Shown here: positions 14,912-53,315 of the stretch, piece by piece
How positions within the stretch are numbered: position 1 is the first letter of the stretch
How the letters are laid out: each line of letters opens with the position of its first letter
Assembly: GCF_055900595.2 (NCBI RefSeq)
Contig: NZ_CM148325.1
Length of the DNA: 64,000 bases
Strand: one strand, 5' to 3'
The notes under the pieces: model-generated
Databases searched by the model: none
Seen by the model: only the letters and a program-made list of their open reading frames with translations
Told to the model about the DNA's origin: nothing
Translations under genes and position numbers: made by a program

Positions 14912-16474
14912 ATGCAAACACAAAAACCGACTCTCGAACTGTTAACCTGCGAAGGTGCTTATCGCGATAATCCGACCGCGCTTTTTCATCAGTTGTGTGG
15001 GGATCGTCCGGCAACGCTGCTGCTGGAATCCGCAGATATCGACAGCAAGGATGATTTAAAAAGCCTGCTGCTGGTGGACAGTGCGCTGCGCATTACAGCA
15101 TTAGGTGACACTGTCACTATTCAGGCACTTTCCGGCAATGGCGAAGCTCTGCTGGCATTACTGGATAACGCCCTGCCTGCGGGTGTGGAAAATGAACAAT
15201 CACCAAACTGCCGCGTGCTGCGCTTCCCTCCTGTCAGTCCATTGCTGGATGAAGACGCCCGCTTATGCTCCCTTTCGGTTTTTGACGCTTTCCGCTTATT
15301 GCAGAATCTGTTGAATGTACCGAAGGAAGAACGGGAAGCGATGTTCTTTGGCGGCCTGTTCTCTTATGACCTTGTGGCGGGGTTTGAAGATTTACCGCAA
15401 CTGGCAGCGGAAAATAACTGCCCTGATTTCTGTTTTTATCTCGCTGAAACGCTGATGGTTATCGATCATCAGAAAAAAAGTACCCGTATTCAGGCCAGCC
15501 TGTTTGGTCAAAATGAAGAAGAAAAACAACGTCTCACTGCTCGCCTGAACGAACTTCGCCAGCAACTGACCGAAACCGCGCCACCGCTGCCGGTAGTTTC
15601 CGTGCCGCATATGCATTGTGAATGTAATCAGAGCGATGAAGAGTTCGGTGGCGTAGTGCGTTCGTTGCAAAAAGCGATTCGCGCCGGAGAAATTTTCCAG
15701 GTCGTGCCATCTCGCCGTTTCTCGCTGCCCTGCCCGTCACCGCTGGCGGCCTATTACGTGCTGAAAAAGAGTAATCCCAGCCCATACATGTTTTTTATGC
15801 AGGATAATGATTTCACCCTGTTTGGTGCGTCGCCGGAAAGTTCGCTCAAGTATGACGCCACCAGCCGCCAGATTGAGATCTACCCGATTGCCGGAACACG
15901 TCCACGAGGACGTCGCGCCGATGGTTCACTGGACAAAGACCTCGACAGCCGCATTGAACTGGAGATGCGTACCGACCATAAAGAGCTTTCTGAACATCTG
16001 ATGCTGGTGGATCTCGCCCGAAATGACCTTGCGCGCATTTGCACTCCTGGCAGCCGCTACGTTGCCGATCTGACCAAAGTTGACCGTTACTCTTACGTGA
16101 TGCATCTCGTCTCCCGCGTGGTCGGTGAGCTGCGCCACGATCTTGACGCCCTGCACGCTTACCGCGCCTGTATGAACATGGGTACGTTAAGCGGTGCCCC
16201 GAAAGTGCGCGCCATGCAGTTAATTGCCGAAGCGGAAGGTCGTCGACGCGGCAGCTACGGCGGTGCGGTAGGTTATTTCACCGCACATGGCGATCTGGAC
16301 ACCTGCATTGTCATCCGTTCGGCGCTGGTGGAAAACGGTATCGCCACCGTGCAAGCCGGTGCTGGCGTAGTCCTTGATTCTGTTCCGCAGTCGGAAGCCG
16401 ACGAAACCCGTAATAAAGCCCGCGCTGTACTGCGCGCTATCGCCACCGCGCATCATGCACAGGAGACTTTCTGA
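14912..16474 (+). CDS. trpE: Anthranilate synthase component I
   Basis: 520-aa [31 protein letters not shown]; stop overlaps trpD start. Confidence 0.96.
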
Positions 16475-18069
16475 TGGCTGACATTCTGCTGCTCGATAAT
16501 ATCGACTCTTTTACTTATAACCTGGCAGATCAGTTGCGCAGCAATGGACATAACGTGGTGATTTACCGCAACCATATCCCAGCGCAAACATTAATTGAAC
16601 GTCTGGCGACCATGAGCAATCCGGTGCTGATGCTTTCTCCTGGCCCCGGAGTGCCGAGCGAAGCCGGTTGTATGCCGGAACTCCTCACCCGCTTGCGCGG
16701 CAAGCTGCCAATTATCGGCATTTGCCTCGGTCATCAGGCGATTGTCGAAGCTTACGGGGGCTATGTCGGTCAGGCGGGCGAAATTCTTCACGGTAAAGCG
16801 TCGAGCATTGAACATGATGGTCAGGCGATGTTTGCCGGATTAACAAACCCGCTGCCAGTGGCGCGTTATCACTCGCTGGTTGGCAGTAATATTCCGGCCG
16901 GTTTAACCATCAACGCCCATTTTAATGGCATGGTGATGGCGGTGCGTCATGATGCGGATCGCGTTTGTGGATTCCAGTTCCATCCGGAATCCATTCTCAC
17001 CACCCAGGGCGCTCGCCTGCTGGAACAAACGCTGGCCTGGGCACAACAGAAGCTGGAGCCGACCAACACACTGCAACCAATTCTGGAAAAACTGTATCAG
17101 GCGCAGACGCTTAGCCAACAAGAAAGCCACCAGCTGTTTTCAGCGGTGGTGCGTGGCGAGCTGAAACCGGAACAACTGGCGGCTGCATTGGTCAGCATGA
17201 AAATTCGCGGCGAGCACCCGAACGAAATCGCCGGGGCAGCAACTGCCCTTCTGGAAAATGCTGCGCCGTTCCCACGCCCTGATTATCTGTTTGCCGATAT
17301 CGTCGGCACCGGCGGTGACGGCAGCAACAGTATCAATATTTCTACCGCCAGTGCGTTTGTCGCCGCTGCCTGTGGGCTGAAAGTGGCGAAACACGGTAAC
17401 CGCAGCGTCTCCAGTAAATCCGGCTCGTCGGATCTGCTGGCGGCATTCGGTATTAATCTTGATATGAACGCCGATAAATCGCGCCAGGCGCTGGATGAGT
17501 TAGGCGTCTGTTTCCTCTTTGCGCCGAAATATCACACCGGATTTCGCCATGCGATGCCGGTTCGCCAGCAACTGAAAACCCGCACCCTGTTCAACGTGCT
17601 GGGGCCACTGATTAACCCGGCGCATCCGCCGCTGGCGCTAATTGGTGTCTACAGCCCGGAACTGGTGCTGCCAATTGCCGAAACCTTGCGCGTGCTGGGG
17701 TATCAACGCGCAGCGGTGGTGCACAGCGGGGGGATGGATGAAGTTTCATTACACGCGCCGACAATCGTTGCCGAACTGCATGACGGCGAAATTAAGAGCT
17801 ATCAGTTGACCGCTGAAGATTTTGGCCTGACACCCTACCATCAGGAGCAACTGGCAGGCGGAACACCGGAAGAAAACCGTGACATTTTAACACGCTTGTT
17901 ACAAGGTAAAGGCGACGCAGCCCATGAAGCAGCTGTCGCGGCGAATGTCGCCATGTTAATGCGCCTGCATGGCCAGGAAGATCTGCAAACCAATGCGCAA
18001 ACCGTTCTTGAGGTACTGCGCAGTGGTTCCGCTTACGACAGAGTCACCGCACTGGCGGCACGAGGGTAA
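16474..18069 (+). CDS. trpD: Bifunctional anthranilate synthase component II / anthranilate phosphoribosyltransferase
   Basis: 531-aa [25 protein letters not shown]; glutamine amidotransferase N-domain plus PRT C-domain. Confidence 0.96.
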
Positions 18070-19431
18070 ATGATGCAAACCGTTTTAGCGAAAATCGTCG
18101 CAGACAAGGCGATTTGGGTAGAAGCCCGCAAACAGCAGCAACCGCTGGCCAGTTTTCAGAATAAGGTTCAGCCGAGCACGCGACATTTTTATGATGCGCT
18201 ACAGGGTGCACGCACGGCGTTTATTCTGGAGTGCAAGAAAGCGTCGCCGTCAAAAGGCGTGATACGTGATGATTTCGATCCGGCACGCATTGCCGCCATT
18301 TATAAGCATTACGCTTCGGCAATTTCTGTACTGACTGATGAGAAATATTTCCAGGGGAGCTTTGATTTCCTCCCCATCGTCAGCCAAATCGCCCCGCAAC
18401 CGATTTTATGTAAAGACTTTATTATCGACCCTTACCAGATCTATCTGGCGCGCTATTACCAGGCCGATGCCTGTTTATTAATGCTGTCGGTGCTGGACGA
18501 CGATCAGTATCGCCAGCTCGCTGCTGTAGCCCACAGTCTGGAGATGGGCGTGCTGACCGAAGTCAGTAATGAAGAGGAGCTGGAGCGCGCCATTGCATTG
18601 GGAGCAAAAGTCGTTGGCATTAACAACCGCGATCTGCGTGATTTGTCGATTGATCTTAACCGTACCCGCGAGCTTGCGCCGAAACTGGGGCACAACGTGA
18701 CGGTAATCAGCGAATCCGGCATCAATACTTACGCCCAGGTGCGTGAGTTAAGCCACTTCGCTAACGGCTTTCTGATTGGTTCGGCGCTAATGGCCCATGA
18801 TGATTTGAACGCCGCCGTGCGCCGGGTGTTGCTGGGTGAGAATAAAGTGTGTGGTCTGACGCGTGGGCAAGATGCTAAAGCAACTCATGACGCGGGCGCG
18901 ATTTACGGTGGATTGATATTTGTTACAACGTCACCCCGTTGCGTCAGCGTTGAACAGGCGCAGGAAGTGATGGCTGCGGCACCGTTGCAATACGTTGGCG
19001 TGTTCCGCAATCACGATATTGCCGATGTGGTGGACAAAGCTAAGGTGTTATCGCTGGCGGCAGTGCAACTGCATGGTAATGAAGATCAGCTGTATATCGA
19101 CACTCTGCGTGAGGCTCTGCCAGCAAACGTCGCCATCTGGAAGGCTTTAAGTGTCGGTGAAACTCTTCCCGCGCGCGATTTTCAGCACATCGATAAATAT
19201 GTATTCGACAACGGTCAGGGCGGGAGCGGACAACGTTTCGACTGGTCACTGTTAAACGGTCAATCGCTTGGCAACGTTCTGCTGGCGGGTGGCTTAGGCG
19301 CAGATAACTGCGTGGAAGCGGCACAAACCGGCTGCGCCGGGCTTGATTTTAATTCTGCTGTAGAGTCGCAACCGGGCATCAAAGACGCACGTCTTTTGGC
19401 CTCGGTTTTCCAGACGCTGCGCGCATATTAA
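18070..19431 (+). CDS. trpC: Bifunctional indole-3-glycerol-phosphate synthase / phosphoribosylanthranilate isomerase
   Basis: 453-aa [32 protein letters not shown]. Confidence 0.95.
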
Positions 19432-25879: not shown

Positions 25880-27520
25880 TCAGAACTCAAAATTCACACC
25901 AGCATTCCACGATGCGGATGACCCACCTGCAGCAACTGCAACTTTTCCTGCCACATTCTCTGTGAAACGGTAGCCCACGCCCACCGCAATGGCCTGCTCA
26001 TCACGGTAACCACCAACGGCTGCTGTCGCGTTAAATTTTCCAACACTGTATGGCTGGAAAAGACCGGCCAGTGCCGCGCTCTGGGCTGCACTCTCCCTTA
26101 ACTCCTTCCGGTTCTCTTTAATCTGCTCCTGCATATTATTCATTCTCTCTGTCGCCATCTTCTGCCAGGCTTCCGTCAAATCCAGACGATGACTGTTATT
26201 CCTTATCGCTGCTGTATTTGAGGCTATTGCTGCATCCGTCTGCGCCACCGCTGCCGATGTGACTGCAATAATATCCCTGCTGAGTTCATCACGTACTGCT
26301 GTAACCTGACTGTCAGTATGAGCACGGGCATCTCTGTATACACCGCCTATCTCACCACGCAGACTGTCTCCCTCTGCCTTCAGTTCATCACGTACTGCTG
26401 TGACCTGACTGTCAGTATGAGCACGGGCATCTCTGTATACACCACCTATCTCACCACGCAGACTGTCTCCCTCTGCCTTCAGTTCATCACGTACTGCTGT
26501 GACCTGACTGTCAGTATGAGCACGGGCATCTCTGTATACACCGCCTATCTCACCACGCAGACTGTCTCCCTCTGCCTTCAGTTCATCACGTACTGCTGTG
26601 ACCTGACTGTCAGTATGAGCACGGGCATCTCTGTATACACCACCTATCTCACCACGCAGACTGTCTCCCTCTGCCTTCAGTTCATCACGTACTGCTGTGA
26701 CCTGACTGTCAGTATGAGCACGGGCATCTCTGTATACACCGCCTATCTCACCACGCAGACTGTCTCCCTCTGCCTTCAGTTCATCACGTACTGCTGTGAC
26801 CTGACTGTCAGTATGAGCACGGGCATCTCTGTATACACCACCTATCTCACCACGCAGACTGTCTCCCTGTGATTTCACTTCAACCCCAAGGTTGCGGGTA
26901 CGATTATCCAGCTCCACGACGAATTCTTTAACAGGGACTGTCTGAGCATTTCCGTCAGCCCTTCCGTCAGCAGTGATTCGGCCTGATGAATCCAGAACAA
27001 AATTCTGGCCTTCAACTACATTTTTATACAATGATGACAATCCCGATGTTGTATTACTAATTTTAATAAAATCCTCAGCGGTACCACCAGCATTAACAGC
27101 GGCGATATAATCATCCTTGTTTTCTGGCTTGATTATTTTTTGTAGTGATTCTTTTGTATCAACAATGGACTTTATATCTTCTGCTTTTATATTTCTGATG
27201 TTTTCGGCTTTTAATGCATCTGAGTAGATGGGGTAAGTTAGCAAATCCTGAGCAACAATATGCCTAGCATTCTCAGGAGCTGCTAATATAGCACGCGTAA
27301 TAGAATCATTCGGGACAATACGCCCTGTATTAGCTCCAGTAATAGTATTAATAAGATTAACATCATTACCTTTTGATATTACTGCCGCACCATTATCATA
27401 CAGAGTAACCTCATATCCATCTACATTAAAACTCTCTTCTGCCATAACCCCCACAGAGTAACATAACAGCGCACCGGTAACCGCCATTGCCAATACATTC
27501 TTTGCCATTATAAATTTCAT
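25880..27520 (-). CDS. YadA-like trimeric autotransporter adhesin (Eib immunoglobulin-binding-family-like)
   Basis: 546 aa; signal peptide; six tandem 33-aa coiled-coil repeats; C-terminal anchor [63 protein letters not shown] resembles YadA/Eib membrane anchors. Confidence 0.75.
26283..26872. repeat. Six tandem copies of a 99-bp repeat (two alternating variants) inside the adhesin gene
   Basis: GTCAGTATGAGCACGGGC recurs at 26312, 26411, 26510, 26609, 26708 and 26807 (period exactly 99); variants alternate CACCGCC/CACCACC. Confidence 0.9.
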
Positions 27521-27955: not shown

Positions 27956-28531
27956 TCACCATCCAACCCTGTACGCCAGAATGGTTTCACTGTCACTCAG
28001 TTCTGCTATTGCCTTTTTCATCTCCCTTTGCCTTATATGTATTTCAAGGCCTTTCCTGAACATCGCTTTACCAGCAGCATCACTCAGGGATATCAGTTCA
28101 TCTGCCGTCATCGGTACATCATTATTCTCTGCGTCCGTCCAGAAAAATCCTTCCGGCAACACACCGCCTCTGGCCGCTGATGCCGACATTCCAAGACGTG
28201 TCATGGCTTCCTTTCCATAATCCCATTTCCGTCCTCTGTGCTCAAAAACATACCCTGACGCCTCCATCGCATCACGCCAGGCATTTATCTCCGCGTTTTT
28301 CATCCTGCGTGCTTCTTCCACAGCCATATCATCATTTGCCCGGTACTCACCTACCGGCCCTGCATCACCTCTTATGCAGGCTTCAAATATTTCACGACCG
28401 TAAGACTCAGGATCATCCGCACTTGCTGTAAATACACATTCTGTTTCCGCGTCTGAAAACTTCACTATACAGTTTATGGTCGTATGACCCCTGTCAGCCC
28501 ACACTGGTGACGTGATTTTATCGACCTTCAT
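27956..28531 (-). CDS. Tail fibre assembly protein (lambda Tfa-like)
   Basis: 191 aa, immediately downstream of the side tail fibre gene; Tfa-like composition and conserved Trp/Asp pattern. Confidence 0.75.
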   Translation of the reverse strand: MKVDKITSPVWADRGHTTINCIVKFSDAETECVFTASADDPESYGREIFEACIRGDAGPVGEYRANDDMAVEEARRMKNAEINAWRDAMEASGYVFEHRGRKWDYGKEAMTRLGMSASAARGGVLPEGFFWTDAENNDVPMTADELISLSDAAGKAMFRKGLEIHIRQREMKKAIAELSDSETILAYRVGW

Positions 28532-28545
28532 TCATTTCTCCCCTG

Positions 28546-30396
28546 TCACCGTATTCTCTGAAACAGGCCCCAAATCGTCCCAATGATATTATTGACTGTC
28601 ATGTTAGTTGTGCATAACATCCATGTACCAAGCATATGATTGCCAAATAAAAAGCGGATATCTGTAAGTTTATCCGATGACGACGACACAATAACGGCCT
28701 GTCTGATACGATACCCGGGTATTTCACGGGTATTTGTTACCTCATGATTTCGTTCTATGATCCCCAGAACATAAGACCCCACGGAATAAACACTTCCGAC
28801 GCTCGCTGGCTGCCCCGGCTGTCCCTGCGGACCTGCCGGGCCGCGTGCACCTGTATCGCCCTTTAGTCCCTGAGGACCTGCCGGGCCGCGTTCACCTGTA
28901 TCCCCCTTTAGTCCCTGTGGACCTGCCGGACCGCGTTCACCTGTATCGCCCTTTGGTCCCTGTGGGCCACGCTCCCCCTGGGCTCCCAGCTCTTTCCATT
29001 CAGACCAGGGGCCATTACCGGTAAAATTACCAGTAACAGTTCTTACGAACTTTCGTGGTGGGTTCCAGGTTGTATATTCATGCTGGCAATATCCCCATGC
29101 ACCAACTCTTACCTGAAGATAACCCGCTCTCTGAATCGGATAATTATTTTCTCGTGTAGCCCCACTGTCTGATGGCTGATAATAATCACCCTGATCGGTC
29201 ACTCGTCCCAGTCGGTTCAGATCACCATTCAGCAGTTGTCCACGGGCTGACTCTCCTCTTGGTCCCTGAGGGCCTTCCGGACCACGTGCACCTGTTTCGC
29301 CCTTTGCTCCCTGTGGACCTGCCGGGCCGCGTTCACCTGTTTCACCTTTTGGTCCCTGTGGACCTGCCGGGCCGCGTTCACCTGTATCCCCCTTTAGTCC
29401 CTGTGGACCTGCCGGACCGCGTTCACCTGTTTCACCTTTTGGTCCCTGTGGTCCTGCCGGGCCGCGTTCACCTGTTTCACCCTTTGCTCCCTGTGGACCT
29501 TCCGGGCCACGTTCACCTGTATCGCCCTTTAGTCCCTGTGGACCTGCCGGACCGCGTTCACCTGTTTCACCTTTTGGTCCCTGTGGACCTCCCGGATCTC
29601 CTTTATCCCCCTTAGGGCCTTTTTCTCCTCGCTCACCCTTTTCTCCCTTCAGACCCTGAGGGCCTTCCGGACCACGTGCACCTGTTTCGCCCTTTGCTCC
29701 CTGTGGACCTGCCGGGCCGCGTTCACCTGTTTCACCTTTTGGTCCCTGTGGACCTGCCGGGCCGCGTGCACCTGTTTCACCCTTTGGTCCCTGAGGACCT
29801 GCCGGGCCGCGTTCACCTGTATCGCCCTTTAGTCCCTGTGGACCTGCCGGACCGCGTTCACCTGTTTCACCTTTTGGTCCCTGTGGTCCTGCCGGGCCAC
29901 GTGCTCCTGTTTCACCTTTTGGCCCCTGTGGCCCGGTAATGCCTCTTTCACCACGTGCGCCGGTATCCCCTTTCTCTCCTCGTGGTCCCCGGGCAGATGC
30001 AGCTCGTTTCCGGGCTTCCTCCGCCTCAGATGCCGCGGACTCTGCTCTGTGCAGTATGGACTGCACCACAGCCTCCAGCTCTGACAACGCCTTCGGATAA
30101 TAAGGAGCATCTTCCATCTCCATCAGAAATTTATTCAGTGTTCCCGGTGAAGAATCCTCCCTGACCACGATATCTCCCACATACGAAGGACGGTAACCTT
30201 CTGTATTGAGTGTCACCCTGTATATTCCTGGCTCCACATCCATACTGTAACTCCCCGTCTCTTCCGGCATGCCATAAGCCACTGTCGTGGCGATGACTGT
30301 CTCGCTGGTTCTCTTCGCTTTCAGCTCAATAATGCATCCCGGTACCGGTTTTCCGGTTCCGTCCCTCAGCACGCCTGAAATTTTTACAGCCGCCAT
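28546..30396 (-). CDS. Side tail fibre protein with collagen-like Gly-X-Y repeats (lambda Stf-like N-terminus)
   Basis: 616 aa; N-terminus [29 protein letters not shown] resembles lambda Stf; long [19 protein letters not shown] collagen-like tracts. Confidence 0.85.
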
Positions 30397-30468: not shown

Positions 30469-30714
30469 TTACTTCACGCACGAAACTTTCGTAAACATAT
30501 CTTCACTCACCCACTGACCATAAAATCTCGGAGCTGATACTTTATACACAGTGCCGCTTTTCGTTTCTATTTTCCCTGTAAGATCTACCGTATAAGCTCG
30601 CTGTAAAACCCCGGGACTCAGCACACCGGTGCACCGGACTCTCTCCGTAACGGAACGGTACCCCGCGCAACCTGATACAAGAAACAGCAAAAAAGTGCAG
30701 ACGATTATTTTCAT
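30469..30714 (-). CDS. Small lipoprotein, 81 aa (possible Cor-like superinfection-exclusion protein)
   Basis: Signal peptide with lipobox LVSGC; size and position just distal to J match Cor-type lipoproteins of lambdoid phages; sequence similarity unverified. Confidence 0.45.
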   Translation of the reverse strand: MKIIVCTFLLFLVSGCAGYRSVTERVRCTGVLSPGVLQRAYTVDLTGKIETKSGTVYKVSAPRFYGQWVSEDMFTKVSCVK

Positions 30715-30735
30715 TACATGCCCTCAACATAACTA

Positions 30736-31398
30736 TCAGTACGCATCATAAATTTCTGCATTTATGTAATAACAGAGGTTATTAACAACACCTGAATTAT
30801 CATTGGGCGCCGCTACGTTATCTTCAGCAAAAGTTGACTGACGCCATAACTGTGAGTTTCTGGCATTAAAACTGGCGGTATACCAGTAATAACTCTCCCC
30901 TTCCTGAACTGTCGTCCACTGGGTACACCCCGGCATTACGGCCACATCATGTCCCACACTGATCGGTACATCCTTTTCCCATATTCGCGTCATTTTTACT
31001 TCCAGTGGCAGCATTTCCGTGTTCCAGACCACCCTGCCATGACTGTCGCACAACTGTATTCCCCATTGCGGCCATACATTCACCATGTTGGCAAAAACAT
31101 AAACAACATATGTGCTGTCCTGTTCCATGCCCGGCTCCTGCCCTGTACCAGCGCTGAAAATGTCATACTGCCAGGTACCGTTAAGCTGAACCATTTCACC
31201 ATGGAAGGACTGATTACCGCTTATCTGTTTAATAAAAATCACGCAACGATAATTCGTCGGCACCCCGGTGTCGATAAACTGCATCACCGCATCACGCGCA
31301 CTCAGTGTGAAATGAAAACGGCGCACAAGGTTCAGTGGCGGCGCAACAGGTGATATCCATTCTCTCCCCCGCTCATCAGTTAATTTAAGTGCAAACAT
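30736..31398 (-). CDS. Hypothetical phage protein, 220 aa
   Basis: ORF track; Trp/Tyr-rich; sits where lambda carries lom. Confidence 0.5.
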   Translation of the reverse strand: MFALKLTDERGREWISPVAPPLNLVRRFHFTLSARDAVMQFIDTGVPTNYRCVIFIKQISGNQSFHGEMVQLNGTWQYDIFSAGTGQEPGMEQDSTYVVYVFANMVNVWPQWGIQLCDSHGRVVWNTEMLPLEVKMTRIWEKDVPISVGHDVAVMPGCTQWTTVQEGESYYWYTASFNARNSQLWRQSTFAEDNVAAPNDNSGVVNNLCYYINAEIYDAY

Positions 31399-31658
31399 CA
31401 GATCCCCCTTATCATGACCAGCACGGGTCTTAGCCAGCTTGTGTTGGCATAGTGCACTGTCCAGCCGGATACACTGGCACTGGTATGACTTCCCTGACCG
31501 TTAATCAGAATGGCCGGTGAACAGACTTCCAGACGCCAGCCCTGCAAAGGAGTATAAGAACGCTGCCCCGTCCCTTCAGTGATCACATCCAGCACCCCTG
31601 TTGGGTTTATTTCATGTGTCACAAGGCGCCCTTTGCGCCATACCCGGACTCCGAACAT
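31398..31658 (-). CDS. Hypothetical phage protein, 86 aa
   Basis: ORF track; start overlaps the J stop; coupled to the downstream ORF. Confidence 0.45.
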   Translation of the reverse strand: MFGVRVWRKGRLVTHEINPTGVLDVITEGTGQRSYTPLQGWRLEVCSPAILINGQGSHTSASVSGWTVHYANTSWLRPVLVMIRGI

Positions 31659-34600
31659 TACAGTCTCCCCAGTCGTACTCTTAACACATTGTTATCGTCA
31701 TATACGTCGATTCGCTCGCCATTGAAAAACAGGCGGCCTGCGCCGGGCCTTCCTGAGTTAATTTCAAGGCTGCCGTTTCTTGATAAACGCCACCCCGGAC
31801 TACCGGAATGAAAATTATCTGACCGGATATCTCCCGTCACTCTGGCAAAATCCACGGTCAGTTTTTTCATGAAAACATCATTCATGAACAGCTGATCACC
31901 CTGAGCCACAAACAAAGGTGTTGTATTGCCATTTTCCGGGTTAATCATCACAATACGATCTGCCTGCATCAGGATCTGACTCTGAATTCCGTCAGACGTA
32001 TTTTCGATTCCGGCACCAATACCTGCAATATAGAGACGTCCATCCCGTGTCTGCTGCAGCTTCACAGCCCACATGCTGTTCAGGTTCCGGCGCGTGTCCT
32101 CCTGAACTTTCTGTATCTGCTCAATGCTGGCATTCCAGGATCCCAGTTTTTTATCCGTGCTCTGTTTGATCTGACTTCCCTTATCATCAACATACTGTCT
32201 GATCTGCGCTATCTGTCGGCTGTTCTCCTCCGTGCTCCTGCTTACTGTCTGCCGGATTTCGCTGCCCATCCTGTCAACTTTTCTGTCAACTTCCGCAATG
32301 GCCATTGACTGTTCACCGCTCTTTTTCGCCACAACCGTACTTATTTCCGCACTTTTATCATCAACATACTGCCTGACCTGCGCTATCTGTCGGCTGTTCT
32401 CCTCCGTGCTCCTGGTTACTGTCTGCCGGATTTCACTGCTCACGCTGTCAACTTTCCTGTCGACTTTCGCAATGGCCAGCGACTGTTCACCGCTCTTTTT
32501 CGCCACCAGTTCCGTTATGCTGTTTTCAGACGCCGTGATTTTTTTCGTCACCTCTGCGATATCACGCTCCGCACGCTGCCTCACATCTTTCTCCAGCTGC
32601 GTCATTTCGCGGTTAATCTCATTCTCCAGTTGCTCAACTTCAGTGCGCAGTGCAGAGGCATCAATGCGTTCATTGATCTCCCGTCCCAGATGCGTTTTAT
32701 TTATCGCCCCCCTGAAAAAATTAAGGTAAGCGGCAGGATCATTACTCGGTTGACCGACTGCCTCCACGAATGCCGATTTACCGACAGTGTTAACACTGCG
32801 GATATAAAAGTAATAATCATGGCCCGGCTTAATATTGATACTGGCGGCTATCCAGTACAGCGCCGTGCCAAGATAGCGGGCTGTGGTTTCAACCTGCCTG
32901 ATATCGGTAATCCGCGTTTCCGAGAACCAGAACTCAAACTGTACCGTCGGGTCATAAACGGCAAGATGCGGCGTGGCGGTTATCTGAAAATAGCCCGGCG
33001 TCAGCTCAATCCGCGACGGCGCTGCCGGTGCGGCAATCCGGAACGATACCGACGCCGGGTCTCCCTGCTGCCCCCGGGCATTTACCGCCCGGACCGTCAG
33101 CGTGTAACGCCCCAGCGCCAGTTGCCTGAAGCGGTATGTGGTTTCCGTCGTCCGGGCCGTGCTGACCAGCCGCTCACTGCCGTCATCCGCTGCCACGGTC
33201 AGGCGAAGCAGGAAGCTCACGCCCTTCACCACCTTCGGCGTGTCCCAGCGCGCCAGCACCTGATATTCCCCGCTGTCTGCGGTGACTTCTGCGGTCAGGT
33301 GCTGCACCGCTGGCGGCGTGACACCATTCACCGTTCCGCTCTGGTCGCCGTCAAAGTGCGCCCCGTTATCCACGATGGCCTCTTTTTCCGGTACATGCTG
33401 CACGGCAGTGATGGCATACGTGCCGTCGTCGTTCTCACGGATACTCACGCAGCGGAACAGGCGCTGGCGCAGCGTCGGCAGCTTCAGCCCCCACACGCTG
33501 TATTCAGCAACGCCGTCAGGAACACTGCTCACTTTCACCTTCACGCCGTCAGTGACGGACTGAACCTCCACGCTGACCGGATTGCCACTTCCGTCAACCA
33601 GGCTTATCAGCGTGGTACCGGAGGATGGCAGCGTGATTTCACGATCGAGCGTCAGCGTCCGGGTCTGGCTGTTCACCGCCAGCACGCGCCCACCGGTGCT
33701 GATACCGGCATAGTCATCATCACAGATTTCAATGACATCGCCCGGCACATGGCGAAGCCCTTCGGCACCCACGCTGAAGTCCACGGTCTGCGTTTCCAGC
33801 AGCTCCGTTTTAATCAGCCACAGCCCGGCGCGGTGTGCCTGCCCCCGGCTGGTACAGCCAAAGGCATCCATCTTCGTGACGTTACGACCGTAACGGGCAA
33901 TGGCCTGCGTGTCCTCCACAAGCTCTGTCGCCGTCTCCTGGCCGTTATCCGGGTCACTCCAGTTCACCTCAACGGCATTATGGCGGTCCTTCAGGGCGCT
34001 GAAGCTGTAGCGGAACGGCGCGCCATCATCCGGCATCACCACATTACTGCGGTTATAGGTCCACACCTTATCCGACGGTCGGTCCTGCACGAACGTCAGC
34101 GTCTGCCCGTTCCATACCGGCATACAGCGCATCGCCGAGCAGAAATCACTGAGCACATCCCACGCCTTACGCTGCCTGGTCAGCCAGGCATTACAGGTGA
34201 TGCGCGGCTCCGTGCCACCAGAGCCGTCCGGCACCGACTGGTCGCAGTACTGGCCGATGACATACAGCGCCCATTTGTCCACATCCGCTGCGCCAACACG
34301 TTTCCCCATGCCGTAGCGCGGGTGGGTCAGCATATCCCACAGACACCAGGCCGGGTTATCGCTGTATGCCGGTTTAAACGTTCCGTCCCAGATACCGCTG
34401 TATTGCCGCGTCTGCGGGTTATAGTTCGACGGCACCTGCAGAATGCGCCCGCGAAAATGATAATTACGGCTCACCTGCTGGCTGCCGAACTCCTCCGAAT
34501 CCACCTGCACACCGACCAGTGCCGTGTTCGGGTAGCACTGTTTCACATCGATGATTTCGGTGTATGACGACCAGAGCGTTTTGTTCTGCAGCTGGTCTGT

Positions 34601-35167
34601 GGTGCTGTCCGGTGTCATCCTGCGCATCCGGATATTGAACGGGCGCGGCGGCAGGTTATCCACCACCACCGAAGCCAGATACTGTGAAGTGGTTTTTCCC
34701 TTAATGGTGATGTCTTTTTCCGTTAACCAGCGACCGTTACGCTGTATCTGAACCAGCAGGCGGACTTCCGACGGATTCCGGTCCCCCTTTGAGGTGGTTT
34801 CCACCAGTGCCTGCACACCGAAGGTCAGGCGCAGACGGTCGATGTTTGCCGACGTGATGGTCCGGGTAATCGGCGTGTCGTACTTCACTTCCGTACCCAG
34901 CACCGTCTCGGAGCCGGAGGATTCAAATCCCTCCGGCGGCGTCTGCTCCTGCTCACCGGCCCGGAACACCACCGTGACGCCGGAGATATTGGTATTCCCC
35001 TCACTGTCCAGCACCGGCGTACCGTTCAGCAGCACGCTTTTTAATCCATCCACCGGTCCTTGTATCGGCCCTTCGCTGATGACATCGATCACACTCAGCA
35101 ACTGCGTGGACTTCAGGTTGTCCTTCGCTTCGCGCGGGGTATGCCCCTTACTGCTGCCTTTACCCAT
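31658..35167 (-). CDS. Tail tip host-specificity protein (lambda J-like)
   Basis: 1169 aa; N-terminal two-thirds resemble lambda J; C-terminal region divergent with an internal duplicated ~49-aa segment. Confidence 0.9.
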
Positions 35168-48599: not shown

Positions 48600-49277
48600 A
48601 TGTCCATCATTTTTAATGGACACTATCGTATGAAACACCGGACCTGGATCACTGAAGCTTTACGTCTTCACTTTGAAGAACATTTACCCCGGGTTGTGGC
48701 CGGGCGTCGCCTGGGTGTACCAAAATCAACAGTTTGTAGTATGTTCGTGCGCTTTCGGAGAGCTGGCCTTTCGTGGCCTTTGCCCGCAGGCATGTCGGAG
48801 CAGGAACTTGATGCCTGCCTTTACGGACAATTTTCCACGGTACCAGTCGTACGTCCTGAAAGCACCGTTATATCCGAAGCCCCCGTGGTAAAAAAACGTC
48901 CCCGGCGGCCCAACTTCCCTTATGAGTTTAAAATCGCCTTAGTGGAGCAGTCACTGCAGCCCGGAGCCTGTGTGGCGCAGATCGCCCGGGAAAACGGAAT
49001 CAACGATAACCTGCTCTTCAACTGGCGCCATCAATACCGGAAAGGTGGCCTGCTGCCTTCCGGAAAAAATATGCCGGCACTGCTTCCCGTGACGTTAACG
49101 CCGGAGCCGGATAATAAAATCCCGGCCCCCGCACAGGAACCAGAGCGGATAAATACACCGTCCGACAGTCTGTGTTGTGAGCTGGTTCTGCCGGCCGGAA
49201 CTCTCAGGCTTAAAGGTAAACTGACGCCGGCGTTATTACAGACACTTATCCGCGAAATAAAAGGGAGCAGCCACTGA
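48600..49277 (+). CDS. IS66-family accessory protein (orfA/TnpA-like)
   Basis: First ORF of the IS; start uncertain (alternative Met at 48630); HTH-like N-terminal region. Confidence 0.65.
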   Translation: MSIIFNGHYRMKHRTWITEALRLHFEEHLPRVVAGRRLGVPKSTVCSMFVRFRRAGLSWPLPAGMSEQELDACLYGQFSTVPVVRPESTVISEAPVVKKRPRRPNFPYEFKIALVEQSLQPGACVAQIARENGINDNLLFNWRHQYRKGGLLPSGKNMPALLPVTLTPEPDNKIPAPAQEPERINTPSDSLCCELVLPAGTLRLKGKLTPALLQTLIREIKGSSH

Positions 49278-49624
49278 TGATATCTCTCCCTGCAGGTTCG
49301 CGTATCTGGCTGGTTGCAGGTATCACCGATATGCGAAATGGCTTTAACGGCCTGGCATCAAAAGTTCAGAACGTCCTGAAGGATGACCCGTTCTCCGGAC
49401 ACCTGTTCATCTTCCGCGGACGCCGGGGTGACCAGATAAAAGTGTTGTGGGCTGACAGTGACGGACTGTGCCTCTTCACCAAACGCCTGGAGCGGGGCCG
49501 CTTCGTCTGGCCAGTCACCCGTGACGGCAAGGTGCACCTTACTCCGGCTCAGTTATCCATGCTTCTTGAAGGTATCAACTGGAAGCACCCGAAACGAACG
49601 GAACGCGCTGGAATCCGCATATAA
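49277..49624 (+). CDS. IS66-family Orf2/TnpB protein
   Basis: 115 aa MISLPAGSRIWLVAGITDMRNGFNGLASKVQNVL, a signature IS66 Orf2 sequence; overlaps orfA stop. Confidence 0.85.
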   Translation: MISLPAGSRIWLVAGITDMRNGFNGLASKVQNVLKDDPFSGHLFIFRGRRGDQIKVLWADSDGLCLFTKRLERGRFVWPVTRDGKVHLTPAQLSMLLEGINWKHPKRTERAGIRI

Positions 49625-49643
49625 CCCGTTGTAAAGTGAGGAT

Positions 49644-51215
49644 ATGGACACCTCACTTGCTCATGAGAACGCCCGCCTGCGGGCACTGTTGCAGACGCAA
49701 CAGGACACCATCCGCCAGATGGCTGAATACAACCGCCTGCTCTCACAGCGGGTGGCGGCTTATGCTTCCGAAATCAACCGGCTGAAGGCGCTGGTTGCGA
49801 AACTGCAACGTATGCAGTTCGGTAAAAGCTCAGAAAAACTTCGTGCAAAAACCGAACGGCAGATACAGGAAGCACAGGAGCGAATCAGCGCACTTCAGGA
49901 AGAAATGGCGGAAACGCTGGGTGAGCAATATGACCCGGTACTGCCATCCGCCCTGCGCCAGTCTTCAGCCCGTAAACCGTTACCGGCCTCACTTCCCCGT
50001 GAAACCCGGGTTATCCGGCCGGAAGAGGAATGCTGTCCTGCCTGTGGTGGTGAACTCAGTTCTCTGGGATGTGATGTGTCAGAGCAACTGGAGCTTATCA
50101 GCAGCGCCTTTAAGGTTATCGAAACACAACGTCCGAAACAGGCCTGTTGCCGGTGCGACCATATCGTGCAGGCACCAGTACCTTCAAAACCCATTGCACG
50201 CAGTTATGCCGGAGCGGGGCTTCTGGCCCATGTTGTCACCGGGAAATATGCAGACCATCTGCCGTTATACCGCCAGTCAGAAATATACCGTCGTCAGGGA
50301 GTGGAGCTGAGCCGTGCCACACTGGGGCGCTGGACAGGTGCTGTTGCTGAACTGCTGGAGCCGCTGTATGACGTCCTGCGCCAGTATGTGCTGATGCCCG
50401 GTAAAGTCCATGCTGATGATATCCCCGTCCCGGTCCAGGAGCCGGGCAGCGGTAAAACCCGGACAGCCCGGCTGTGGGTCTACGTCCGTGATGACCGTAA
50501 CGCCGGTTCACAGATGCCCCCGGCGGTCTGGTTCGCGTACAGTCCGGACCGGAAAGGTATCCATCCACAAAATCACCTGGCCGGTTACAGCGGTGTGCTT
50601 CAGGCCGATGCTTACGGTGGTTACCGGGCGTTATACGAATCCGGCAGAATAACGGAAGCCGCGTGTATGGCTCATGCCCGGAGAAAAATCCACGATGTGC
50701 ATGCAAGAGCGCCCACCTACATCACCACGGAAGCCCTGCAGCGTATCGGTGAACTGTATGCCATCGAGGCAGAGGTCCGGGGCTGTTCAGCAGAACAGCG
50801 TCTGGCGGCAAGAAAAGCCAGAGCCGCGCCACTGATGCAGTCACTGTATGACTGGATACAGCAACAGATGAAAACACTGTCGCGTCACTCAGATACGGCA
50901 AAAGCGTTCGCATACCTGCTGAAACAGTGGGATGCACTGAACGTGTACTGCAGTAATGGCTGGGTGGAAATCGACAACAACATCGCAGAGAACGCCTTAC
51001 GGGGAGTGGCCGTAGGCCGGAAAAACTGGATGTTCGCGGGTTCCGACAGCGGTGGTGAACATGCGGCGGTGTTGTACTCGCTGATCGGCACATGCCGTCT
51101 GAACAATGTGGAGCCAGAAAAGTGGCTGCGTTACGTCATTGAACATATCCAGGACTGGCCGGCAAACCGGGTACGCGATCTGTTGCCCTGGAAAGTTGAT
51201 CTGAGCTCTCAGTAA
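49644..51215 (+). CDS. IS66-family transposase (orfC)
   Basis: 523 aa with leucine-zipper N-terminus, CxxC zinc motif (CPACGG) and DDE core. Confidence 0.88.
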
Positions 51216-51245
51216 ATATCAATACGGTTCTGACGAGTCGCTTAC

Positions 51246-52834
51246 TTCATACGGGCATAGAGAATTTCTTTTGCGGTGTCCGTCCCCACTTCACACAGAT
51301 ACACGCCCCGCTGATTGCGGGTTTTTGGCATGGTGATCACCGGCTTGCCATAGACAGATGCGCCTTTTACCGGCAGCACCCGGAAAACACCGTGTTTTTT
51401 TGACCTCTGATAAACGATTTCGCCATCGATCCCCCCGATGTCCCAGCAGACACGGGAAATGGTCATTTCGGTTCCGTCTGCATGGCGGTATTTTTTGTTG
51501 ATCGCTGCATCCACACGTAACAGCGTCTCTTCCTCATCGGGACGTCCCATAATAATGATTTTATCCACCAGAAAGGCTTCCTCTCCCGGAGCCCATCCCC
51601 AGACATACATCTCAAAACGGTTTCGCTGCGAGTCAATGCCCGCCGTCAGATAAACCACCCGGGCAGGCACCGCCGCCGTGTAACGCACAACCTTATCCAT
51701 CAGTACCTGGTGATCGAGTTTTTCGCCCACGGCCTCTTCCCAGGTCTCGCCCAGCGTGGTGTTCACAAAGGTTTTCAGGCCGTTGGGATCTTTCAGTGCA
51801 TCCAGCCAGTCATAGACTATCTGTACCCAGGTGGTGAACGGACTGTACGCCGTCCAGATATGGAAAGTGATGGAGCGCGGCGGCGGAATTTCATCACCCC
51901 GGGCGCTGAAAAACATCAGGCCGTCACGGGTCCACATGCCCGTGTTTTCAGAGATCCACCGCCCGTTACTCTGGTCAAGCTCAGACTGATGGATCACACA
52001 GCCATGATGCTCACAAAGGTAGAAAACGCTTTCGGGGCTGTCCTTCTCCCATTTAAGGCCAAAAGGCGTGGATTCATCGCCAAATTTCAGATACTGCTCC
52101 TCCCCACAGTGCGGGCAGGGCACATAAAAACGCATGAAATGTGCCGACTCGTTAGCGGCTTTTTCGATCTGGCAGGAGCCTTTGATTTTAGGCGTCGAGC
52201 CGCGAATGGATTTTGGCCATACAGAGCCCTCAATACGCTTATCCCCCAGCAGGGTTGGCGAGCCCTCTTTTTCAACATCAGGTTCAAACGATGAGAGTTC
52301 GTCATAGCAGACCACGTCCACGGATTTTTCACGGTAGTTTTTTGCTGCCGCACCACCCAGGCACCAGAAGCCCACACCCGATGAAAAGCGTTTCAGCGTG
52401 AGAGTATTGTCACGATGTTTACGCCCCAGCCATGGAGAAAGGTCTTTCAGACATGGCACATCCCGAATCGTCGCCTCCACGTGAGACTTCATAAAATCTT
52501 CAGCGGCAGAATCCGTGGGCTGAAAAAGCAGACTGTTTCGGGATTTATGCTCAATAAAATACCCGACCACCCCCAGCAACATCTTTGTATAACCAACACG
52601 GGCAGATTTAATCAGGTTAACAGTGCGAATCAGATCGTTGCCCATACAGTTCATGATGGCGATCTGGAACGGCAGCGTTTTCCATTCTCCCTCACCATAT
52701 GAAGATTCTTTAGGCAGATAATAATTTTGATCAGCCCATTCAACTGCCGTCACCGGCAATGCCCTTATCAGGGGCTGTAATGCTGTTGTGACAGCACTCA
52801 TCATATTATTCAGTTGTTGCTCTGATATATTCAT
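51246..52834 (-). pseudogene. Terminase large subunit A, N-terminal fragment (truncated by the IS insertion)
   Basis: ORF track 51242..52891; lambda gpA-like from MNISEQQLNNMMSAVTTALQ through ...GTDTAKEILYARMK, then a stop contributed by the IS end (GTAAGC). Confidence 0.85.
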
Positions 52835-53315
52835 CGAGTAAATCCGGTAATTTATCCCCTGCCCGCGCACACTGATTTGCCCCCTTCGCAATAAGGGTTT
52901 TCAGATGGTCAAGATGGCGCGGTGTTAAATCAGGAAACTGTCGTTGCATGGATAAAGGGATGGAATCAAGCGTACTGGATAACGCCATTGCCAGCTTGCT
53001 GAGGGCAAAAATACAGAACCCGGTGTCAATAAGTTTTCCTTTTGACACCTCATTTTTTAACTGCTGTGTAACAGCCTGTTCTGCTGTCAGTTCCCATCTG
53101 GCAATAAGCAATTTCTCCTCATAGTCGTCTTCGCTATCGCCATCAGGCACATCGTTTTTACTTCTTCTCAGATACGATATGTAAAAATCACGCCAGGCAT
53201 CCAGATCCAGTTGCCCTCGCTTATTCGATATCGGGGCACCCGGCAATTTCTGCAGTCTGCGAAGCTGGCGATCGGTCAGACTCAAATGCCTGGCAACTTC
53301 AGTCTGCGTAGCCAC
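52806..53315 (-). CDS. Terminase small subunit Nu1
   Basis: 169 aa; N-terminal HTH MATQTEVARHLSLTDRQLRRL; C-terminal half lambda Nu1-like; 3' end overlaps the A start. Confidence 0.82.
   Translation of the reverse strand: MATQTEVARHLSLTDRQLRRLQKLPGAPISNKRGQLDLDAWRDFYISYLRRSKNDVPDGDSEDDYEEKLLIARWELTAEQAVTQQLKNEVSKGKLIDTGFCIFALSKLAMALSSTLDSIPLSMQRQFPDLTPRHLDHLKTLIAKGANQCARAGDKLPDLLDEYIRATTE

Follow-up and report, generated by a model that had tools for sequence, protein, structure and literature searches.

A length-variable collagen-like tract, split by a predicted knob domain, in the side tail fibre gene of a lambda-like prophage

The fibre locus and its domain layout

The window (the whole 64-kb stretch of DNA that was analysed) carries a lambda-like prophage adjoining the trp operon, and its fibre module is encoded on the minus strand, a correction to the initial annotation as regards the fibre gene; all features described below lie on that strand unless stated otherwise. 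Upstream of the module lies the central tail fibre and host specificity gene J (31658-35167; phrog_31 'central tail fiber J', E 0), which is followed by three small genes, the side tail fibre gene (28546-30396; a single intact open reading frame of 616 aa) and a 191-aa accessory gene of the DUF4376 family (27956-28531; PF14301, E 1.5e-20; phrog_1141 'tail fiber protein', E 5e-62). This order recurs in related loci, where the J counterpart is annotated as gpJ, and in prophage P-EibA, where the counterpart of the DUF4376 gene is orf-191A. In all related loci the DUF4376 gene follows the fibre gene; it occupies the tfa position of lambda, though the gene itself differs, the Tfa protein of lambda being of another family than DUF4376. 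A PDB sequence search with the DUF4376 protein returned no solved homologue, while its exact sequence was found unchanged on 595 contigs in a collection of ~15 billion proteins; the exact 616-aa fibre sequence was absent from the same collection, with or without its stop codon. Adjoining cargo genes of the prophage encode an Eib-like autotransporter and a Cor-like lipoprotein. Separately, the large terminase gene is abutted at its 3' end by an IS66-family element, and because of the element's position the prophage may be defective.

The fibre protein matches phrog_366 ('tail fiber protein', E 2e-124), and its homologues are annotated in RefSeq as 'prophage tail fiber N-terminal domain-containing protein'. 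Its N-terminal domain (aa 1-136; 29989-30396) comprises a Stf-type collar (~aa 3-94) and a stretch that runs up to the first Gly-X-Y triplet. The Pfam model of the prophage tail fibre N-terminal domain, PF08400, covers aa 3-133 (E 4.6e-40), and aa 3-94 match the collar of the Ur-lambda Stf fibre (PDB 9E7M chain Ta, E 7.7e-29); by its sequence and by comparison with Ur-lambda, the stretch between the collar and the first triplet is probably a helical neck. Together with the position downstream of J, these two matches bear out the side tail fibre identity that had been proposed from the sequence.

Behind the N-terminal domain, runs of triplets define a first collagen-like tract, Col1, of 82 triplets with one interruption. 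Its first part holds 45 triplets (aa 137-271; 29584-29988) with a 45-bp period in the DNA, a single residue then breaks the register (Gln 272 in the motif G-D-P-G-G-P-Q-G at aa 266-273; 29581-29583), and a second part adds 37 triplets (aa 273-383; 29248-29580). An 87-aa globular, non-collagen domain (aa 384-470; 28987-29247), discussed below, splits the tract, and 20 more triplets follow as Col2 (aa 471-530; 28807-28986), which is identified by its triplet run, by Tandem Repeats Finder and as the best PF01391 stretch. The collagen triple helix model PF01391 matches the fibre with E 8e-51 (170 bits vs a cut-off of 27), and across all frames of the 64-kb window there is no further Gly-X-Y run of at least 6 triplets. 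In the triplets, position X is Pro in 44%, Asp/Glu in 36% and Ala in 10% of cases, while position Y is mainly Lys/Arg, Thr, Gln or Ala and only 4% Pro. The collagen-like tract that the initial annotation had recognised in this gene is thus well founded, with runs of 45, 37 and 20 triplets. Its extent, given there as 28800-29960, is real in substance but runs from 28807 to 29988, slightly past that end, and the ~1.1 kb of repeats described are not continuous, since 921 of the 1182 nt encode Gly-X-Y and the remainder consists of the 261 nt of the globular domain and one break codon.

The C-terminal domain (86 aa; 28549-28806) shows pairwise similarity to other prophage collagen-like fibres. No Pfam model matched it even at E 10, and a word-indexed protein search returned four partial proteins, all on tiny contigs. 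It aligns with the C-terminus of P0034, an E. coli prophage fibre of the EPclB type (Col-Pf2-Col) that served as stand-in for ECs1228 and gp61 in this comparison, at 29% identity (E 2e-9), and with P-EibA ORF-401 at 35% identity (E 7e-15) in an alignment that includes collagen triplets too. On these alignments, the domain appears to be distantly related to that of other prophage collagen-like fibres, and it may be a counterpart of the PfC-type trimerisation domain of EPcl proteins.

We consider it very probable that the tract forms the collagen-like shaft of a side tail fibre belonging to a lambda-type prophage. Collagen-like repeats also occur in bacterial surface adhesins, and a gene of that kind, comparable to streptococcal Scl or Legionella Lcl, could be carried by a prophage as cargo and not as a virion component; the NCBIfam Lcl, SclA and SclB models do match the fibre with E 1e-59 to 1e-64, and surface-protein cargo lies next door in the form of the Eib-like and Cor-like genes. 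However, these matches arise via the collagen repeats and score far under the curated cut-offs (217 vs 500, 206 vs 400 and 201 vs 325 bits), the N-terminus is a Stf collar domain that binds phage tails, no LPXTG anchor motif was seen in the fibre sequence, and the gene occupies the stf position, with J on one side and the gene in the tfa position on the other. An adhesin is therefore hardly credible here.

The mid-shaft knob and relationships to known fibres

The middle domain of the fibre gave no direct match to Pfam (E up to 10) or NCBIfam models. An exhaustive search collected 251 clusters related to it, and a profile built from 34 of these matches Knob2 of the R2/R1 pyocin fibre (PDB 6CL6, 6CT8, 6CL5; E 9e-10). 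AlphaFold2 run on the single sequence was unusable (pLDDT 37), and an alignment of distant homologues was needed to obtain a model with pLDDT 90.1. The top three Foldseek matches of this model are again 6CL6, 6CT8 and 6CL5 (probability 1.00, TM 0.58-0.64); against Knob2, which has a five- or six-stranded beta-sheet fold, it reaches TM 0.63 over 85 columns. Judged by sequence profile and predicted fold, the 87-aa domain is a pyocin-type knob. The Pf2 repeat, PF03406, was not detected by Pfam search between the collagen tracts of the window fibre. The initial annotation had overlooked both the knob that splits the tract and the prior description of this class of protein.

The R1/R2 pyocin fibre (PDB 6CL5, 6CL6 and 6CT8) shares with the window fibre the Knob2 sequence signature and fold, as well as a thin rod between knob and C-terminal domain (Buth et al. 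2018, PMC6116203). The pyocin rods, however, consist of helix-plus-turn and iron-binding shaft domains, whereas those of the window are collagen-like, and the pyocin fibre differs further in its two tandem knobs, its lectin-like foot and its place on a contractile particle (PMC6116203).

The fibre is one of the prophage collagen-like proteins, a class known from earlier work on E. coli (Ghosh et al. 2012, PMC3368898) that includes EPclA-D of EHEC prophages. Closest is the EPclC type as typified by ORF-401 of prophage P-EibA (AF151091), whose PfN domain is ~75% identical to that of the window. Both have two collagen tracts, a G-X-P-G-G-P-X-G motif in the first and no long PCoil domain; for EPcl proteins, the published rule is one such interruption, placed in the first collagen domain of the two (PMC3368898), and the register break in the window follows it. 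The residue preferences at X and Y are also alike (in prophage collagen-like proteins, X is Pro in 48%, Asp/Glu in 36% and Ala in 10%, and Y is Pro in 7%; PMC3368898), and in both the tracts differ in length by multiples of three residues. P-EibA and the window further share the order J, cargo gene(s), fibre, 191-aa gene and Eib-type autotransporter. They differ between the tracts, where the window has the pyocin-type knob, ORF-401 a Pf2-like motif and EPclB a Pf2 repeat; in the length of Col1, at 247 aa in the window vs 117 aa in ORF-401, which places the window among the longest (published maximum 322 aa; PMC3368898); and in the C-terminal stretch, which is related but only ~35% identical.

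Two further groups of fibres are informative. The Stf fibre of Ur-lambda (PDB 9E7M/9MGH; PMC12617516) has a homologous collar and is likewise encoded downstream of J; it is trimeric and hinge-jointed (PMC12617516), whereas the window fibre has a mid-shaft knob, which would be trimeric and might act as a joint. [quoted passage not shown] The EPclB-type fibres of short-tailed Stx phages, i.e., Sp5 ORF67/ECs1228 and phi24B gp61, resemble the window fibre in having a long collagen-like shaft interrupted mid-way and a small C-terminal globular domain; gp61 is a lateral fibre of phi24B, and an antibody to Sp5 ORF67 labels the ends of virion tails. Their location on the virion tail has been shown experimentally. 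They differ in having short tails, a coiled-coil N-terminal region and a Pf2 repeat or coiled-coil interruption in place of the knob. The layout of collar, collagen, pyocin-type knob, collagen and C-terminal domain hence joins modules previously described in separate fibre families, and is a small addition to what was known.

The repeat array and its variation among prophages

At the DNA level, Tandem Repeats Finder detects a 45-bp (15-aa) period: the stretch 29259-29931 holds 15.3 copies, and Col2 has 3.2 copies at 28821-28965 (93% matches). A repeat search found 17 in-register copies at 45-nt spacing, save for one step of 75 nt and one of 306 nt. Exact direct repeats of 24 nt or more number 29 in the fibre gene, all with offsets that are multiples of 3, and the longest, of 114 nt, is shared between the second part of Col1 (29264-29377) and its first part (29654-29767). 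None of 20 codon shuffles produced an exact repeat of at least 24 nt, and 100 protein-preserving synonymous-codon shuffles gave a mean of 1.1 and a maximum of 5, the longest being 38 nt. With 29 repeats observed vs about one in the synonymous shuffles, the repetition in the DNA therefore exceeds what the protein repeat demands. The tract had been described as a nest of 27- to 63-bp repeats; the near-identity of the repeats is confirmed, while the basic unit is 45 bp and the exact repeats span 24-114 nt. The motif quoted in that description occurs five times in the fibre.

Three other readings of the array were set aside. A phase-variable (on/off) gene was ruled out, given that the unit is 45 bp long and all repeat offsets are divisible by 3. 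The plus-strand open reading frames inside the tract (29172-29615 and 29676-29939) were treated as artefacts, being stop-free antisense of GC-rich repeats. Finally, import of the 25-codon block with the register break from another fibre family is unsupported by the distribution of the corresponding 121-nt segment, which at ≥97% identity is confined to this one fibre family (21 genomes); matches in other fibre genes lie at 72-80%.

For comparison we took 13 loci of complete E. coli genomes together with 33 protein clusters. The non-collagen domains measure 136, 87 and 86 aa and are constant where present, and in the 11 full-length alleles, all of the same architecture, they are 97-100% identical to those of the window. 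The collagen tracts vary in length, in frame and mostly by multiples of five triplets: Col1 has 19, 24, 29, 34, 39 or 44 triplets in some homologues, while in others 35, 45 or 55 triplets precede the break and 17 to 63 follow it, and Col2 has 10 to 21. Two loci (L006 and L011) are without the knob, their two tracts being fused in frame. Fibre lengths across related prophages, the comparison that had been proposed as a check, thus differ through the shaft, in frame and in 45-base steps, and the expectation of a hot-spot for in-frame length variation holds, with the other domains fixed.

Because exact repeats reach 114 nt in a 45-bp periodic array, it is plausible that the tract is easy to misassemble, and the repeat count of the window might itself be an artefact of collapsed or expanded units, the 616 aa then not being a real allele. 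Many public relatives are partial proteins that stop inside or beside the tract on very short contigs (221-2302 nt), and the exact fibre protein is absent from the public collections searched. Against this, the window's reading frame is intact, its architecture is shared by 11/11 full-length alleles from complete genomes, and E. coli Ch1, an independent complete genome, has an equally long allele that aligns without gaps at 98.6% identity, with the same layout of 45 + 1 + 37 + 20. We accordingly regard an artefact as improbable. Substitutions between the window and the Ch1 allele are concentrated in the shaft, 22 of the 26 lying in Col1 (Fisher p 4.9e-6).

Individual pairs of alleles illustrate how the array changes. 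L002 and L010 differ solely by one 45-nt unit in Col2. In strain LH50-c, which carries two prophages with such fibres (L004 and L005), Col1 differs at 1/696 nt, but the two genes are unlike in the N-terminal part, in Col2 and in the C-terminal part; L005 is in turn identical outside Col1 to an allele of another strain (L003), from which its Col1 differs at 22/696 nt. This mosaic pattern, with a Col1 shared between co-resident prophages, supports recombination between prophages and is direct evidence for it, as the initial annotation had anticipated. Further, the triplet register is kept in 11/11 full-length alleles from complete genomes and in the 33 protein clusters, and the fact that every full-length allele is in frame and in Gly-X-Y register shows purifying selection on a functional rod.

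The length changes may be a neutral by-product, arising mainly by slippage within one gene, and neither a selected tuning of reach nor mainly the result of exchange between prophages; we hold this to be quite possible, at somewhat short of an even chance. The single 45-nt difference between L002 and L010 fits one slippage or unequal-exchange event, and the loss of the knob in otherwise intact reading frames indicates that the shaft design tolerates large changes. Yet exchange does happen, as the LH50-c prophages with near-identical Col1 and different flanking fibre domains demonstrate, and the rod is under purifying selection, although neutrality of shaft length itself could hold within that constraint.

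A proposed model of the fibre and its significance

In the model that we propose, the N-terminal domain would dock the fibre onto the tail tip in the manner of the Ur-lambda collar, and three chains would wind into a collagen triple helix, forming a thin rod of ~71 nm (Col1) with one register break, followed by a trimeric knob and a second rod of ~17 nm (Col2). We infer triple-helix and trimer formation from EPclA, which is trimeric, has a collagen domain that is thermally stable and looks like a dumbbell in electron microscopy. The C-terminal domain would presumably trimerise the fibre or bind the host surface, a receptor-binding role of either this domain or the knob being putative, and the downstream 191-aa protein probably acts as an accessory in assembly or at the tip. 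Presence in virions is likewise predicted, and any fitness effect of shaft length is putative, as is the choice of receptor-binding domain.

The DNA of the shaft amounts to ~20 near-identical 45-bp units on which unequal crossing-over, replication slippage and gene conversion can act, within the gene or between the fibre genes of co-resident prophages. Whole 15-residue units (~4.3 nm each) would then be gained, lost or swapped with the frame intact, such that shaft length and unit order change and the attachment and distal domains do not. Two separate binding sites, knob and foot, have been proposed for R-type pyocin fibres (PMC6116203). The collagen rods could similarly be adjustable spacers between binding sites on the knob and the C-terminal domain, their length being a selected host-range character and not the outcome of neutral drift; we think this unlikely. 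If it were true, reach and contact spacing would be tuned to the thickness of the host's surface layers by steps of one 4.3-nm unit and by gene conversion among co-resident prophages.

These findings leave current understanding unchanged, and their significance is mainly for annotation and assembly quality. Short-read assemblies break at the collagen-like tracts of prophage fibres, and co-resident prophages exchange sequence there; allele lengths in draft genomes therefore call for caution. The alleles from complete genomes, for their part, provide clean examples of single-unit deletion, knob loss and gene conversion between prophages. Together, they make a further case of modular tail-fibre evolution, in which attachment and distal domains are fixed and the rod between them changes in 15-residue steps.

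The side tail fibre gene and its prophage

A single intact open reading frame (ORF) of 616 aa (28546-30396, minus strand) begins with the 'Prophage tail fibre N-terminal' domain (PF08400; residues 3-133, E 4.6e-40) and matches chain Ta of PDB 9E7M over residues 3-94 (E 7.7e-29). Chain Ta is the collar that forms the N-terminus of Stf, the Ur-lambda side fibre; twelve such collar domains surround the tail tip and hold four trimeric fibres in place (PMC12617516). The top PHROG match is likewise a tail-fibre family (E 2e-124). On the minus strand, gene order runs from the central fibre gene J (31658-35167) through three small genes (30469-31658), one of them for a Cor-like lipoprotein, then the fibre gene itself, a 191-aa DUF4376 gene (27956-28531), and a YadA/Eib-like autotransporter (25880-27520) to a sigma-like gene. 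In the deposited sequence of prophage P-EibA from ECOR-9, the top match in the phage collection, the genes follow this same order (J, lom, orf-401, orf-191A, eibA). Lambda-type head, tail, and lysis genes and a Q antiterminator surround the fibre gene, in a prophage adjoining trpEDCBA and yciEF. Together, these domain matches, gene order, and setting leave the sequence-based designation as a side tail fibre gene, made in the initial annotation, well supported.

Several further features of this prophage were observed. Downstream of the fibre module, the eibA position is taken by the autotransporter gene, whose 546-aa product is of the trimeric type with a YadA anchor. Within it, a 99-bp (33-aa) unit is repeated 6.1 times at 98% identity (26283-26882), and the gene measures 1641 nt versus 1410-1443 nt for homologues annotated in related prophages, so its length differs between prophages. 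The small genes between J and the fibre gene occupy the lom site of lambda and P-EibA, where some related prophages carry lom and some nothing. Of their products, the 81-aa one is a lipoprotein with a weak match to the Cor superinfection-exclusion family, the 220-aa one matches phrog_425 ('membrane associated protein'), and the 86-aa one matches phrog_557; none has a Pfam match. The C-terminal part of J carries 1.9 copies of a 174-bp unit (32181-32506, minus strand; 92% identity) encoding a duplicated segment that reads like a coiled coil. The portal gene and the large terminase gene (51242-52891, minus strand) are separated by an IS66-family element (~48600-51215, plus strand) that comprises a 523-aa DDE transposase and an HTH transposase-accessory ORF. 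Because the terminase ORF terminates right at this element and its nuclease domain covers only profile positions 3-221 of 294, the prophage is probably unable to package DNA; in several related genomes, IS66 copies flank or cut the fibre module. Finally, the trpE-trpC flank (14912-19431, plus strand) reaches at most 98.5% identity with complete E. coli genomes and just 90-95% with 4239 of 5422 matching records, so the host may be an atypical Escherichia lineage or its trp region unusually divergent.

Collagen tracts and a 45-bp repeat array

The collagen-like tract is real: the fibre contains uninterrupted Gly-X-Y runs of 45 (residues 137-271; 29584-29988), 37 (residues 273-383; 29248-29580), and 20 triplets (residues 471-530; 28807-28986), all on the minus strand, and the Pfam collagen model matches with E 8e-51. 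The motif quoted in the initial annotation occurs five times, and no comparable run exists in any frame elsewhere in the window. The tract was correctly placed within the fibre gene, while its limits (28800-29960) need correcting to 28807-29988 and the gene lies on the minus strand. Triplets account for 921 of these 1182 nt, the other 261 nt (28987-29247) encoding a globular domain. The G+C content is 62-69% in the collagen tracts versus 43-53% in the remainder of the gene. Two antisense stop-free ORFs of 147 and 87 aa (29172-29615 and 29676-29939, plus strand), themselves composed of repeats, could be wrongly called genes; we regard them as a side effect of the GC-rich triplets.

At the DNA level, near-identical repeats had been described as 27-63 bp. 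The array is present, while its unit measures 45 bp: Tandem Repeats Finder counts 15.3 copies at 29259-29931 and another 3.2 at 28821-28965. A repeat search found 17 in-register copies at 45-nt intervals with two exceptional steps, one of 75 nt, corresponding to a 25-codon block bearing a register break, and one of 306 nt, spanning the non-collagen insert. In all, 29 exact direct repeats reach 24 nt or more (up to 114 nt), each with an offset that is a multiple of three. None of this size arose in 20 codon shuffles, and 100 synonymous-codon permutations that preserved the protein gave a mean of 1.1 (longest 38 nt). The protein repeat thus requires far less repetition than the DNA shows, which points to recent duplication or homogenisation.

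Relatives of the fibre and its mid-shaft knob

This class of protein was described in enterohaemorrhagic E. coli prophages as EPclA-D, with a PfN domain and one or two collagen domains whose lengths differ from copy to copy by a multiple of three residues (Ghosh et al. 2012, PMC3368898). Those with two domains carry a conserved G-X-P-G-G-P-X-G interruption in the first, and the class has characteristic X/Y preferences (X is Pro 48%, Asp/Glu 36%, Ala 10%; PMC3368898). The window protein shares the interruption (G-D-P-G-G-P-Q-G) and a similar X-position composition (Pro 44%, Asp/Glu 36%, Ala 10%), and its layout is closest to that of EPclC, without the long PCoil domain. The long first tract (Col1) measures 247 aa, within a published range reaching 322 aa (PMC3368898); at 0.288 nm per residue, the two rods would be ~71 nm and ~17 nm, and one 45-bp unit 4.3 nm. 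Recombinant EPclA is a dumbbell-shaped trimer with a stable collagen domain (Ghosh et al.), and related collagen-like fibres have been seen by immuno-electron microscopy at the Sp5 tail and by cryo-electron microscopy on phi24B. NCBIfam models of bacterial collagen-like adhesins matched via repeats only, with scores far under their cut-offs.

The initial annotation overlooked the 87-residue knob (residues 384-470; 28987-29247, minus strand) that separates Col1 from the second tract (Col2). The knob has no Pfam or NCBIfam match. Searching 1.8 billion cluster representatives exhaustively gave 251 related clusters, some of the proteins having several copies. A profile built from 34 diverse members matched Knob2 of R2/R1 pyocin fibres (PDB 6CL6, 6CT8, 6CL5; E 9e-10), and the AlphaFold2 model from that alignment (pLDDT 90.1) returned only these three structures as confident Foldseek PDB matches (probability 1.00, TM 0.58-0.64), the next, T4 gp34, being much weaker. 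Variability in pyocin fibres falls on Knob2 and the C-terminal domain, the likely surface-binding parts (PMC6116203). ORF-401 of P-EibA and EPclB have a Pf2 repeat instead of this knob. No Pfam model covers the 86-aa C-terminal domain, which resembles the C-terminus of an EPclB-like fibre (29% identity, E 2e-9) and the end of ORF-401 (35%, E 7e-15, over a stretch that includes collagen triplets), all three sharing a ...GTW...LFQRI ending.

Length variation and exchange between prophages

The fibre gene is present in 23 of 5426 complete E. coli genomes (megablast), and lengths were compared across 13 complete-genome loci and 33 close protein clusters. Non-collagen parts, where present, are always 136, 87, and 86 aa, and in 11 full-length alleles their DNA is 97-100% identical to the window. 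Tract lengths differ among these related prophages, with 19, 24, 29, 34, 39, or 44 triplets in uninterrupted Col1, 35, 45, or 55 before and 17, 23, 27, 32, 37, or 63 after the break in interrupted Col1, and 10, 11, 15, 16, 20, or 21 in Col2, bearing out the proposed in-frame variation. A single 45-nt Col2 unit is the sole difference between two alleles (L002 and L010). Two others, L006 (NZ_CP128970.1) and L011 (NZ_CP029741.1), lack the knob, their tracts being fused in frame (55+23 and 55+63 triplets, respectively). L011 is an incomplete pseudogene in RefSeq, yet reads as an intact ORF of ~577 aa.

Caution is warranted as to whether the repeat count of the window is an assembly artefact, given exact repeats of up to 114 nt and public partial proteins that stop at the collagen tract on contigs of 221-2302 nt. 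However, the window ORF is intact, and the independent complete genome of strain Ch1 has an allele of equal length and layout that aligns without gaps, 22 of the 26 substitutions falling in Col1 (Fisher p 4.9e-6). Among ~15 billion catalogued proteins, none is an exact copy of the 616-aa allele; the neighbouring DUF4376 protein has unchanged copies on 595 contigs.

Recombination between prophages, also proposed initially, is borne out by two separate prophages of one LH50-c chromosome (L004 and L005), which differ at 1/696 nt of Col1, 3/408 nt of the N-terminal part, and 6/261 nt of the C-terminal part and have unequal Col2 lengths. Outside Col1, L005 matches L003 of another strain exactly; within Col1, 22/696 nt differ. 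The pattern is the signature of collagen-tract gene conversion between co-resident prophages.

The initial interpretation of the tract holds, for a fibre of a described class whose in-frame collagen-domain length variation is already in the literature. To this, our analysis makes modest additions: it identifies the mid-shaft knob, defines the 45-bp unit, and supplies clean complete-genome examples of change by a single unit, of knob loss, and of inter-prophage conversion.
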